From Octopus vulgaris (Eukaryota), in assembly GCA_951406725.2 (NCBI GenBank), contig OX597814.1:19716001-19780000 (forward strand): DNA of 64,000 bases. Direction: 5' to 3'. This document shows positions 54,152 through 63,063 of this stretch, one piece after another; positions within the stretch are counted from its first letter, which is position 1; the number at the start of each line of letters is the position of its first letter. Below the pieces are notes generated by a model. It worked only from the letters and a program-made list of their open reading frames with translations. It had not been told where the DNA came from and made no database searches. Made by a program: the position numbers and the translations under genes.

Positions 54152-54195
<44 letters not shown>

Positions 54196-54570
54196 CATAA
54201 GGGACTAAAGCCATCTGAATATGGCTAGGGACAGGGCAGGGTGGTGGGGGTGTTACTGTTGCATTTAGCCCCAGGCGAACATCGACGTCACCAGAAAGGC
54301 TCGACACCGTCACGGTGCCCTAAACCTGCAAAGGGAGGTAATTCCCCGATGAAGCGGAAACCACACACCACCCCCACCACCCTGCCCTGTCCCTAGCCAT
54401 ATTCAGATGGCTTTAGTCCCTTATGTTATCGAGCAGTTACTGTCTATATCCCTTTTAGAGAATTATTATTGCTTTCGAACAGATTTTCGAAATCAGCAAA
54501 TGTATTTTGCTTGAAAATCTATATAAGAAATCCTGCATAGTGAGAATTCGTCGAGGAAGCGGAGGCCTAC

Positions 54571-54616
54571 CACACGCCGATGATAGGCAATACACCTTGA
54601 AACCATGGTCCGTGTG
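54571..54616 (+). ncRNA. Type I hammerhead ribozyme, copy 1 (predicted cleavage after C54610)
   Basis: CACACG-CCGATGA-T-AGG-CAATACA-CCT-T-GAAA-CCATGG-T-C-CGTGTG. Stem I extends via GAAGCGGA/TCCGCTTC and AATTC/GAATT. Confidence 0.8.
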
Positions 54617-54929
54617 TGGTTTCCGCTTCATCGGGGAATTACCTCCCTTTGCAGGTTTAGGGCACCGTGACGGTGTCGAGCCTTTCTGGTGACGTCGATG
54701 TTCGCCTGGGGCTAAATGCAACAGTAACACCCCCACCACCCTGCCCTGTCCCTAGCCATATTCAGATGGCTTTAGTCCCTTATGTTATCGAGCAGTTACT
54801 GTCTATATCCCTTTTAGAGAATTATTATTGCTTTCGAACAGATTTTCGAAATCAGCAAATGTATTTTGCTTGAAAATCTATATAAGAAATCCTGCATAGT
54901 GAGAATTCGTCGAGGAAGCGGAGGCCTAC

Positions 54930-54975
54930 CACACGCCGATGATAGGCAATACACCTTGAAACCATGGTCCGTGTG
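54930..54975 (+). ncRNA. Type I hammerhead ribozyme, copy 2 (predicted cleavage after C54969)
   Basis: Identical to copy 1, 359 bp downstream. Confidence 0.8.
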
Positions 54976-55443
54976 TGGTTTCCGCTTCATCGGGGAATTA
55001 CCTCCATTTGCAGGTTTAGGGCACCGTGACGGTGTCGAGCCTTTCTGGTGACGTCGATGTTCGCCTGGGGCTAAATGCAACAGTAACACCCCCACCACCC
55101 TGCCCTGTCCCTAGCCATATTCAGATGGCTTTAGTCCCTTATGTTATCGAGCAGTTACTGTCTATATCCCTTTTAGAGAATTATTATTGCTATATATATA
55201 TATATGTACATATATTTTATAAAATAAAAAAAATAAATGTTCCTTCTCGAGCCATGCCAGACTCATAAGGTCCGGTTTCCCGGTTTCAGTGGCGTACAAA
55301 TTCCCCACCTGGACGGGACGTGAGAATGAATTGTTTTGTTCAAGAACACAACGCATCGCCCGGTCCAGGAATCGAAACCACAACCTTACGATCATGAGTG
55401 CAACACCCTAACCACCAAGCCACGCGTCTCTACTATGTATGTG

Positions 55444-56399: not shown

Positions 56400-57240
56400 G
56401 ACTGCAGCTTCTTGAACCATAATGTCTAATTTCACGTTTCCTATTGTTCATGAGACTGACGAAAATAGCAGTCGGACAATATGTAAGAGAATATGTTTGA
56501 AAATAATTTTGAGATATGAATGGCTAACAGGACATTGACATTTGATTAGTTACCAAAAAGCCTTTGTAAAATGCATCACATTGTCCACATTTAAAACTCG
56601 TGATATTCTCCTTTATTTAGTACCACGTGCGAAAGTGCGATGTTTGCACACTTTTAATATCAAGTGTTCAGGGAAAGTACTTTTGTTAGTGAAGTGTTAA
56701 TGCTGAAAAATATGTAATTCTTTTTTAAATATTGACCAACTTTCACTGTACGAAAAATCAGTTTTGTAACAAATAACCTAACTGGAAATTTCTCAGTAAA
56801 TATCTGCAAGATTGAAATGTCTAAAGAACTAATTTGTTTAACTTATCAACAGTAACTTTTCTAACGCTCAAAACCACTCTATGCATGTTAAGCAAAGATA
56901 AACTTTGTATCATACGATAGCATTCTCATACAACATGCACGACAGACAATTGACAAATATAGAAACGACCTAACAGGAAAATTCGGGTGATTTGATTTAA
57001 GTTTCACCATTAGCAACAACCTGTCTGTCTAGACATTGCGCTAGATTTGATTACAGGCAAACATAACTCTTAAAGAAAGGTAAATAGGAAGCTATATGCA
57101 TACTCTCCAACTATGATCAAGAATTTTATAGAGGACATAAATCAAAAAGTTTCCTTCTTATTCTCGGAGATATTTCCAATAAAGCCACTCCGATTGGAGT
57201 AATTATATCCATTAGATCCGTGATTATACCATCATTTTTT
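56400..57240 (+). mobile_element. Highly degenerate Penelope-like RT remnant
   Basis: DKYRNDLTGKFG*FDLSFTISNNLSV..LDIALDLITGKHNS*RK aligns by eye with [46 protein letters not shown]. Boundaries are approximate. Confidence 0.55.
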
Positions 57241-58868: not shown

Positions 58869-61800
58869 ACACACACACATCTAAATAAACATATACACGC
58901 ACGCAAACGCTGAAGACTTATAATAAACAAGAATTGTAGCTGGAACGTCGTTGAGTGGCAGCTCTGTTTGCAGGTGAGACACGCAGATAAAGTGTGCATA
59001 TCGTCTCTATGTACCAAAACAGCATTTCTCTCCTCTTCCATATATGCACATAATAAGAAGCAGATGTGTTGTAGATTTTATGCAAAAGTAATTCTAGTGT
59101 AAATCGGAGATGATCTTGTTTCTTCTTTTTTATTTGTGTGTGTGTATGTTGTGTAATATTTGTTTTTTATATTTTTTAAAACTTATTTGTTTGTGTATTG
59201 GTTTCGTGTGTTTGTTTGTTTGTTTGCTTATGTTTGTTTGTTTTTTTTTTTGTTGTTGTTTGTTTGGTTCGTTTTTGTGGAAGGTCTTTTTTTTTGTCTT
59301 TTTTATGCTTTTCTTTTGGAGTTTGTATTATTGTATCTATTCGTTTTCAGTGCATGCAATAGCGACTATTCTATACTTAAGGCTTGCACATTGTCGACAA
59401 ACAAACGGTGTGTGTGCAGTGTATGTTCCTTTATGCGTGCATGTGTCTATGTGTATGTGTGTGTTTTCTTTTTGTATGTGTGTGTGTGTGTTGTGCGTTG
59501 TGTGTCTGTCTGAGATAGGGATTGCTTCGATGTATGTATAAGAGGTGCGTGAATGTGTGTATAATGTGCATAAAGTGTTTATATAGATATTCGCGTAGAA
59601 GTAAACACAAACGCTGGAGAATACATACATTCACGCAAATACACAGACACACATTCACACAAATGCGCATAACACACACACACACACACATTTATATATA
59701 TATATACAGAGAGAAAGAGAGAGACATGTGTGTTTGTGTATATAGGGGGTGTACACGCATATTCAATTGATTTCATTTCAGTTTATTTTATAGAAGCAAA
59801 TATATGAGGACAGATTCCTATATACACAAAAGAGCACATACCAGAACATACACATATAACTATGAGCTGGAAACAACGAGAACGCCTCTAAGTGTTCGAT
59901 CGACCTTGTAGAAATAGCAACCAAATCACCCTTGAACTGTCTTTATAAGTCATATTAATCACCCCTGAATTGACTATATAAGTCATGTTTAAAAAAAAAG
60001 CGACATTGAATAATGTTGTCTTATATACACATGTATAGAAATACAAATTTCTCACGACTGCGGCTGCTGGTTTTTAAGGTATGCCTGATCAGAGAGCCTA
60101 GGCTAAGCTACTTTGATTATAAATATGTATTTTTTAACATATCCTACAGATTGGGATAAGCAACGGCAACATCAATAACTCTCCAAGACTAAACAACGAC
60201 GAGGATGACGACGACGATGGAGAGGATGGTGATGACGATGACGATGATGACGATGATGATGATCATGATCATGATCATCATCATCATCATCATGATATAT
60301 TCTGTTATTGATTATAATGTCGCAAGACGTTAAAGACAGCGCAAAAACCGAAATGCTCCCATCCAAAAACTAAAAATATCGGCGATTTACAGCATTTGAA
60401 CATGCCATATCCACAATAACAATAAGGAAACATTAATTGAATAGCAAGAAACAAGACGAGCAATAGAGAACAGCATATTAACAAAAGAAAGGAACCTCAA
60501 AATCGGAGTGGGACCCGCGTAACGTGATTCGAGACTCCCCAAACAAAACTCCCGGACTACTCTGACACCCTAAAGTCAACCTACAGCGGCATAGTTAGAA
60601 CGAGTTCATTTTGTCATGTCATTTTCTCCACCTTTCACAAAATTTAGTGGAGGGTAGATCCTCCCTCTTCATCCTTACTTTCTTCCACAAGCGGAACATA
60701 AAGAATTTAATGAGGGTTAAGCCTCATTAAGTGTGTTAAGGAAAATTCGGGTGATTTGATTTAAGTTTCACCATTAGCAACAACCTGTCTGTCTAGACAT
60801 TGCGCTAGATTTGATTACAGGCAAACATAACTCTTAAACTCTTGAGAGGAAAAGTGCCGTCCTCTAGCAACTTTCGTCGTCATAGCCACCAGGCAAAGAA
60901 AGACTACGCGATTTCCTTTGGAAAACACATGTCAAATGTCAGAATAGATTTACCTAATGATCTGAGCAGTTTGACATGTATCAAGATCATGACAGTAGCT
61001 TCGCAAACGTCTTCACACACTGGCTTCCTGAGTCTTAATTTGAAGAAGATAATCTTTGAAGGACCGTGAGCGTGATTCTAAACGGTTCCAGTTGGTTGTC
61101 ACCAACTTTGTTTACTGAACACATGCCCCTGTACATTGTAGCTCTGAAGATAGGTCTGTAACTAACGGCGCTTAAGTATTCCCCAGCTAGCAGAGGTCGA
61201 CTCTATTAAATGCTGTAAACTTGCCTAAATTGTTCAGAACCCCACTGAAGCCAGATCTAATTTGGACAAACTATATGATGTGTCACATGAAGTGGATGTT
61301 GTTGTGGATAGACTAGGAAGATATTACACAGGTTTGAGTGTCTCCACATAAACCACCAATAACATCACCAGCCATTTAACGTTCACTTTTGCTAAAAACT
61401 CTGGTTTTCACTTTCGCTAAAAACTTTGGTTTAGCATTTCTGAGTCTAAAATTACCTGTTATGGACCCGTGATTGTCTCCCATCACTATTTTTTGACCCC
61501 TGTGGATTTGTGTACGTCTCGAGGATTTAGTGGTTTGGCAAATCAATAAGAATCAGACTAAAAAGAAAATACTGGGCTTGATATGGTCGACCTGATCTTC
61601 CAAGATGCTATCCCAGCATGGCTGCAGTCCAATGACTAAAACTAGTTGAAGATAAAAGATAAAAGAACTCTTCATTTACTGTTACCCTCTCATTGTTAAT
61701 TCTTTCTTTGCAATAACCCATTCAGTGATGCTGGTACACCAATTAAAAAGAGGTTTTATTGTATCCAAAAAATGGCTACTTTATAGTTCTTAAATTTCGT

Positions 61801-62794
61801 GCAGTGGGTGGGGTTGTTTCTGAGAGAGTAGATTTTACTTTGCATTAGAATTCCATTTAAAATAACTTCCTGTGTCATACTAGAGACATTAGCCTGTTTT
61901 CTAGTGGAATAAAACAAGGCTTATATTAAACTCCTGTTGAACTGCAGCTAGGATAGTTTTAGCATTCAATATAGAACTCAGCATATATCCATATGTATGT
62001 TTCGATATCGATTTCTAGATGAAGTGATATAGATAAGACATATAGGACGAGATAAATGAAATTAACGCTATAACGTCGGTCGTGACAGAAGTACCGATCA
62101 GAAGGCTGCTAGTGTAACTCACTGAAATATCTCTTCACCGTTTAGGAAGCCTAGGCCAGCAAAAGATTTATATTCTGAACATAACCAGAACATATTTCTG
62201 ATGACGAGATAAAATCCGTTGACATTTCAATCAGTAAGTGAGCACCGTGCCTCTACAACCAGCTTCATTGCCGCTACGTTAGTTTATATATCAGGAATGT
62301 AAGAAAAAGAAAATATCTCTATGGATACAATATTTTCCGGAAAATTTCGTTTCAAAACCATTCCAGATTACTGATTTTTGCGAACCTGGGGTAGTCACAC
62401 TCTAAATTCAATAAATATTATTTAAGGATGTGTGGGTGCAGGTGTGGCTGTGTAGTAAGAAGTTTGCTTCTCAATTGCATGGTTCAGAGTTCAGTCCCAC
62501 TACGTGACACCTTGGTCAAGTGTCTTCTACAATAACCTCGGGCCGACCAAAGCGTTGTGGGTGGGTTTGGTAGACGGAAACTGAATGAAGCCCGTTGTAT
62601 ATATATATATATATAATAATAAATATTAGGGAATAAATCCAAATTTACAGGGAAAAATCAGATTTAGGATTGAATCCAATTTTATAGTAAAATATTATAT
62701 AATATTAATTAGAGACAAAACCACTATTTTGCAAATCAAACAAGGAAAGACTTAATCAATACATAAAAAAATTTAATATAAAGTAAATAAATCG

Positions 62795-62838
62795 CCACTA
62801 CAATTGTTTCCTGTCTTAAAATGACATTCATCAGGTGG
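62795..62838 (-). ncRNA. Type I hammerhead ribozyme (left arm)
   Basis: CCAC-CTGATGA-A-TGTC-ATTTTAA-GACA-G-GAAA-CAATTG-T-A-GTGG. Confidence 0.8.
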
Positions 62839-62862
62839 ATTTCATATCTTCTATTCAGAAAT

Positions 62863-62906
62863 CCACCTGATGAATGTCATTTGAAGACAGGAAACAATTG
62901 TAGTGG
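62863..62906 (+). ncRNA. Type I hammerhead ribozyme (right arm)
   Basis: CCAC-CTGATGA-A-TGTC-ATTTGAA-GACA-G-GAAA-CAATTG-T-A-GTGG. Confidence 0.8.
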
Positions 62907-62992
62907 CGATTTATTTACTTTATATTAAATTTTTTTATGTATTGATTAAGTCTTTCCTTGTTTGATTTGCAAAATAGTGGTTTTGTCTCTAA

Positions 62993-63063
<71 letters not shown>

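Follow-up and report, generated by a model that had tools for sequence, protein, structure and literature searches.

A hammerhead-bearing retrozyme of Octopus vulgaris with Penelope-type insertion marks and chance-level breaks at its predicted cut site

The window analysed here, a 64,000-nt stretch of Octopus vulgaris DNA, contains at positions 54192-55191 an insertion of a 359-nt non-LTR retrozyme, of which at least 525 insertions reside in (AT)n microsatellites. We consider it probable (approximately 0.8) that this hammerhead-bearing repeat entered (AT)n as two head-to-head arms starting from both of its fixed 3' ends, likely through a trans-acting Penelope-like reverse transcriptase/endonuclease, and that the stop of the inverted arm beside the predicted ribozyme cut is likely due to chance. 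The octopus element is a further non-LTR retrozyme with Penelope-type insertion marks. Its hundreds of near-identical insertions make open steps of Penelope integration countable, including the use of one template for both arms, the matched stops of short arms, and the formation of arrays, which apparently takes place at insertion.

Architecture of the insertion

Both outer ends of the insertion adjoin (AT)n, on the left at 54152-54191, where the element boundary is ambiguous by a few AT letters, and on the right at 55192-55205. Unit positions are counted from 54611 (position 1), the base right after the GUC of the predicted cut. The inverted arm (54192-54368, minus strand) runs from unit position 178, the family's short 3' end, down to position 2, 1 nt from the predicted hammerhead cut. 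The direct arm (54369-55191, plus strand, 823 nt) starts at unit position 118 and passes two predicted hammerheads before reaching the long 3' end of the family at 222. It is an array of 2.3 copies with a period of 359, in which a single mismatch separates the units (54647 versus 55006), and it contains one full retrozyme unit from cut site to cut site (54611-54969, plus strand). Since one arm stops short of the cut and the other extends beyond it (crossing the predicted cut site twice, intact), the insertion belongs to a mixed class. The terminal 44 nt of the direct arm (55148-55191, plus strand; unit 179-222) are present at one outer end only and represent a "tail", which is a hallmark of Penelope-like elements (compare PMC11167929 and PMC8557442).

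Sequence comparison within the window bore out the arrangement given by the first-pass annotation, as 54192-54368 and 54612-54788 are exact reverse complements of each other (177 nt, 100%), the inner end of the former lies one nucleotide from the predicted 5' end at 54611, and the direct array does start at another unit position. The CA-rich microhomology that had been proposed for the arm junction, however, was not recovered: the junction is blunt with an overlap of 0 nt, and CAC merely occurs on both sides.

Two other repeats were observed in the window. A separate near-perfect inverted repeat of 148 nt with a 14-nt spacer (62696-63005) ends at an (AT)n run and might have been inserted as a short palindrome by a different Penelope-type family. 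In addition, an exact 100-nt direct repeat is found at 56975-57074 and 60739-60838, 3764 nt apart.

Family and sampling

The assembly searched consists of 2.8 Gb in 227 contigs. A search with the full unit delivered 279 matches from 40 of the 586 candidates scored. Because such a search favors long arms, insertions were instead sampled by their outer end, and the 178 end joined to (AT)n gave 525 exact matches genome-wide. The discovery set comprises 90 of the 100 loci listed among these 525 matches (three biased-fetch loci and the last seven were omitted), leaving 89 loci with 161 arms after removal of the window. The hold-out set was taken from 100 loci listed among 108 matches and holds 78 loci with 137 arms, composed of 18 of 30 automatic loci (12 duplicated discovery places) and 60 of 70 others. 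The 39 loci from the full-unit search were excluded from the statistics, except for L055 and L043, which re-entered via the hold-out listing. Counts were made per insertion, using the first break from each anchored end, and the pooled data amount to 167 insertions and 298 arms, excluding the window.

Of these 167 other insertions, 131 have two arms, and their outer ends lie at fixed unit positions, namely 178 and about 222. The second arm ends exactly at 222 in 104 of the 131 and at 219 in eight, and although the 222 ends were not selected for their target, nearly all of them adjoin (AT)n. Arm lengths range from 24 nt to more than 5 kb. Judged by the 525 end matches and these arm lengths, the family forms dispersed copies from monomers to multimers, apparently without an LTR/PBS/PPT layout, and the tandem unit is short (within about 150-450 nt), non-coding, and equipped with one predicted type I hammerhead, as is characteristic of retrozymes. 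The family also combines two fixed 3' ends (with the tail on one side), a head-to-head 5'-truncated inverted copy, and a (TA)n target; of these, the one-sided tail, the inverted copy in head-to-head orientation, and the target type have been described as insertion marks of Penelope-like elements (PMC8557442, PMC3846280). No ORF attached to the unit was detected by tblastn in loci L031-L278, and the element is non-autonomous.

Apparent clusters of breaks at positions 53, 81, 87, and 288 proved to be artefacts of a second subfamily and disappeared when natural variant units were included. L032:645-874 holds a diverged relative of the unit, in which the hairpin upstream of 178 and stem III are kept while the core and stem I differ. 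It may represent an older family and could help to locate the recognition element of the reverse transcriptase (RT).

The predicted hammerhead

The predicted type I hammerhead at 54569-54620 (plus strand, predicted cut 54610/54611) is repeated at 54928-54979 (plus strand, predicted cut 54969/54970). Its assignment is based on pattern, fold, and covariation within the family, and no hammerhead family of Rfam was matched, either at the gathering threshold or with E values up to 10. The core consists of CCGAUGA (54577-54583) and GAAA (54599-54602), accompanied by a 2-bp stem III with a palindromic loop. In the main subfamily, all type I core elements (C3 U4 G A N G8 A, GAAA, NUH, and three stems) are present with the exception of U4, which is replaced by C (U4C). 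Among the sampled copies, in which the hammerhead pattern occurs once per unit, the core is of the C3-C4-G8 type in 121 loci, of the U3-U4-G8 type in approximately 20, and of the U3-U4-A8 type in approximately 11. Furthermore, the stem III loop takes the form of one or the other of two palindromes, and paired changes are seen in stem I of the most divergent copies. This covariation of core and stems suggests that the predicted hammerhead fold is under selection.

Contigs of four sequencing runs (presumed to be RNA) have no power to show RNA ends and were excluded from the evidence. They cross the predicted cut site, and one of them has a loose end, presumably adapter-like, at 54550 rather than 54611.

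A covariation of U3 with A8 is known from hammerheads of Penelope-like elements (PMC4209133), and the U4C change lowered activity in vitro, yet supported a viroid in vivo (PMC3088659). Flanking DNA also contains unrelated patterns of type I hammerheads, one of the U3-A8 type and one canonical (L031:3166-3219 and L218:255-307, both on the minus strand), suggesting further ribozyme-bearing families in the same genome.

One template, two classes of insertions

Insertions were classified as short/short when both arms stop before the cut and as long/long when both extend beyond it. In 117 simple loci, the two arms of an insertion differed at 3 of 468 diagnostic sites (0.6%) in the short/short class and at 21 of 1739 (1.2%) in the long/long class, versus approximately 24% between insertions; in five long/long loci, the arms differ at two or more diagnostic sites. 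Some rare variants occur in all units of both arms (9/9 in L104, 7/7 and 6/6 in L106, and 7/7 in L216), a pattern expected of a circle or of a homogeneous source array. The majority of rare variants are confined to a single unit, as from later mutation, and a few (L123, L213) are present in some units. Both arms carry the same haplotype and are therefore likely copies of one RNA template, which supports twin priming.

Simple two-armed insertions (n = 110) comprise 48 short/short and 47 long/long cases but only 15 mixed ones (odds ratio 42, p 2e-15), and this split was replicated. The short near-palindromes end mostly 14-80 nt downstream of the cut. Their two ends are matched (Spearman 0.70), which makes the palindromes near-perfect, with 29 of the 48 pairs lying within 15 nt versus 13 expected by permutation, and the arm that started at 222 ends further 3' in 35 cases, further 5' in nine, and level in four. 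At the junctions of all 131 two-armed insertions, the arms overlap by 0 nt in 36, by 1-2 nt in 58, and by at least 3 nt in 37, counts that are somewhat inflated by variant-tolerant extension. Palindromic inverted junctions in Penelope-like elements have earlier been read as self-priming (PMC3846280).

Inner ends are scattered over the unit but not uniformly. First-pass ends concentrate at positions 14-66 and are densest at a near-palindromic GC-rich hairpin (unit 51-67; 54661-54677, plus strand). This zone was found post hoc in the discovery set and fixed before the hold-out test, and first-pass stops in it were 5.9 times as frequent as elsewhere in the discovery set and 4.4 times as frequent in the hold-out set (p 9e-10). 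Arms started at 178 and those started at 222 share this zone (position p 0.52, length p 7e-9), which shows only a weak excess on later passes (1.4 times, p 0.18). A simple length effect behind the pile-up is ruled out, as the zone tracks sequence and not arm length. A later-pass excess at 179-222, seen post hoc in discovery (2.45 times), did not replicate in hold-out (0.84 times).

The class split and the stop zone could be a broad trace of the ribozyme. Short near-palindromes would then derive from cut linear monomers and long arrays from ligated circles, with a twin-priming Penelope enzyme using one RNA per insertion; cDNA on a monomer would be blocked at position 1 and subsequently lose approximately 10-80 nt in joining or fold-back. 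The scarcity of mixed insertions fits this reading, as does a replicated stop excess that is independent of the start site and fades on later passes. However, only two first-pass ends fall within positions 1-13, so trimming would nearly always have to exceed 10 nt, and three near-symmetric pairs cross the cut (L117, L230, L263). When 42 near-symmetric pairs were picked by hand, their distribution followed a single smooth hump (mean 51, SD 32, Shapiro p 0.22). Moreover, the zone overlaps both the near-palindromic hairpin and the 3' foot of a long rod predicted for the unit, in which positions 1-45 pair with 281-325, and any template could stall the RT there on the first pass. Finally, the class of an insertion is not associated with subfamily or core type (p 0.36), the class ratio showing no difference between subfamilies with unlike cores. 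We regard the explanation as possible but doubtful. Were it true, the U4C hammerhead would have left its in vivo footprint in the two-class split rather than in the junction of the window.

Arm ends at the predicted cut

The first-pass annotation had interpreted the junction in the window as RT run-off at a ribozyme-generated 5' end, joined to a second cDNA primed from the opposite strand, and had taken it as indirect in vivo evidence of cleavage, which a sharp peak of breakpoints between GTC and C across the genomic copies would support. Such a peak is absent. Arm ends at most 2 nt from the cut, with microhomology allowed, number 2 of 161 in the discovery set (L083, L111) and 0 of 137 in the hold-out set. 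The pooled count (2 of 298) compares with a mean of 5.6 per 5-nt window, 92% of 5-nt windows hold at least two arm ends, i.e., the count at the cut or more, and the 95% interval still allows up to 2.4% of arms to end at the cut. Reading across the cut is frequent, as 155 of the 298 arms cross it at least once, with 258 read-throughs in the sample, and the site is passed intact 1473 times genome-wide.

The same picture was obtained from genome-wide break patterns, which covered positions 359 and 1-4, required an exact match of 24-26 nt, and missed the most divergent subfamily; every match was inspected. True breaks account for three of four matches at position 359, one of four at position 1, five of 15 at position 2 (window included), four of 14 at position 3, and six of six at position 4, where several involve complementarity over 5-7 nt (in one case within stem I); the remaining matches are substitutions or small indels. 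At the sample mean stop rate of 0.0027/nt, approximately four breaks per position are expected, and positions 359-2 together contain nine breaks versus 11.9 expected. With uniform ends, about 1.7% of two-armed insertions would come within 1 nt of the cut and about 2.8% within 2 nt, or about 8-13 of an estimated 935 arms, and the observed near-cut counts are similar in size. Two further ends near the cut fall outside the sample counts: L040, from the biased full-unit fetch, ends at the site and entered the genome-wide count at position 359, and an internal segment of L249 ends at position 2.

Since arms end at the cut no more often than elsewhere, the junction in the window is no evidence of ribozyme cutting. 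The stop of its inverted arm is at chance level, and a coincidence of this kind is what several hundred insertions yield by chance. The part of the earlier interpretation that stood is the joining of two cDNAs, as the arms are opposite-strand copies from opposite flanks of the target in 131 of 167 insertions and carry one haplotype; the run-off itself was not supported. We found no prior breakpoint census of a retrozyme in the literature searched (main texts, mostly of open-access papers).

For this particular insertion, a true run-off at a ribozyme-cut 5' end, with one base lost in joining and a rare 5'-cut linear multimer as template, is unlikely. The observed arrangement could come from a linear trimer with a single cut, at its 5' end, if the 178-arm ran off in unit 1 and the 222-arm started in unit 3, and such an origin would agree with an arm end 1 nt from the cut, a blunt junction, the five genome-wide ends at position 2 (plus that in L249), and a predicted core that covaries like those of working hammerheads. 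Nevertheless, positions 359-3 show no excess over expectation or over position 4, position 1 itself has a single break, and the hold-out set contributes none. The partner arm, which across the family is a copy of the same RNA, crosses two cut sites intact. As a population signal, run-off is thus largely refuted, and the population gives no ground to favor a 5'-cut trimer.

An inversion after insertion or in the assembly (DNA-level fold-back, gene conversion, or mis-assembly of tandem repeats) is highly improbable because, error-prone as tandem and inverted repeats are in assemblies (PMC8557442), a DNA rearrangement would not recreate the fixed 178 end in (AT)n at which the inverted arm exactly starts, a start shared with 131 other two-armed insertions whose inner junctions differ.

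Two observations concern joining at or near the cut. L324 and L333 carry small internal deletions or replacements at the predicted cut in otherwise continuous arms, which could reflect repair of cut RNA or plain microhomology deletion. L276 and L278 are independent insertions with swapped arms, and in both the inner junction connects unit positions 4 and 340, pointing to joining driven by sequence.

Proposed mechanism

In the reading we prefer, that of twin priming by a Penelope-type enzyme, the protein would act in trans, nicking the (AT)n target on both strands. The 3'-OH at each nick would then prime cDNA synthesis at one of two internal sites of the same RNA, 44 nt apart; such two-site priming at 178 and 222 is suggested by the fixed ends, the shared haplotype, and the PAc Poseidon assay (PMC11167929). 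The template would be a circle or an uncut multimer, because arms extend over many units. The two cDNAs would stop at scattered sites and be joined via microhomology of 0-5 nt or by fold-back. Short matched arms may arise when one cDNA folds back or when a trailing RT hits a leading RT stalled at the foot of the long stem. As the arrays are bounded on both sides by precise Penelope-type ends, tandem formation at insertion is suggested.

Candidate enzyme partners

A young Penelope-like family with RT and GIY-YIG domains was found in the genome (L309:275-4182, G000:C1:37062500-37068500; also L310-L318). It has a tandem unit of approximately 4.96 kb with an intact ORF, and many copies are identical over the 134 amino acids searched. 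A 557-codon frame without a Pfam match overlaps the 775-codon RT/EN frame, and a T-TTT-TTA heptamer at 1870-1876 is in a register that fits a -1 frameshift; a frameshifted ORF1 has been mentioned for some Penelope-like elements (PMC8557442). The family uses the same (AT)n target and has the same tail and inverted-arm habit as the retrozyme, with a tail of approximately 32-36 nt instead of 44, and no clear hammerhead was seen in it. The family (L309-L320), the one young RT/GIY-YIG family compared, showed no similarity to the 359-nt unit, and no autonomous partner sharing sequence with the unit was found in this comparison. This result and the shorter tail count against the proposed mechanism. 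It was also observed that in L062:2-1934 and L092:367-1510 the (AT)n run that carries the retrozyme directly follows the 3' end of other Penelope-like copies, as expected from a target common to both.

Comparison with known systems

The octopus family resembles the metazoan non-LTR retrozymes described in PMC7229834 in its non-coding tandem unit of approximately 360 nt (350-390 nt in mussel) with one type I hammerhead (predicted for the octopus) per unit and in its dispersed monomers to multimers, for which a circular RNA template yielding tandem cDNA was proposed there. Inverted arms, two fixed 3' ends, and a microsatellite target are features of the octopus family that the available text of PMC7229834 does not describe, and the dominant U4C core is likewise unlike the elements reported there. 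Cleavage and circles were demonstrated by experiment for those elements, whereas the octopus family is known from sequence alone.

With EN+ Penelope-like elements of the Neptune/Naiad type (PMC8557442, PMC3846280), the family has in common partial tandems, a 5'-truncated head-to-head inverted copy, a tail at one end, a (TA)n target, and palindromes at the junctions. It differs from them by having no ORF and a tail of 44 nt versus the 30-40 nt described. A purified Penelope-like protein, PAc Poseidon, nicks and extends both target strands in vitro and starts reverse transcription at two internal sites on its RNA, the distance between which equals the tail (PMC11167929). This protein prefers uncut RNA, none of the RNA-seq reads started at the ribozyme cut, and the cut was dispensable (PMC11167929). 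The octopus family is similar in its two start sites and tail, in its AT-rich target, and in that the cut forms no boundary, but PAc Poseidon is autonomous and was tested in vitro, while the octopus family is non-autonomous and known from genomic breakpoints (PMC11167929). The flat profile at the cut agrees with the in vitro work, according to which ribozyme cleavage is dispensable for insertion.

Animal retrozymes have been concluded to be non-autonomous derivatives of Penelope-like elements from co-distribution and pLTR phylogeny (bioRxiv 10.64898/2026.07.22.740005). Local amplification is suggested there, in a main text from which the term "tail" is absent, whereas the octopus arrays suggest that tandems are made at insertion. 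In the octopus family, an animal retrozyme is linked to the Penelope-type machinery through mechanism, i.e., through the tail, the inverted arm, and the (AT)n target, and not through phylogeny.
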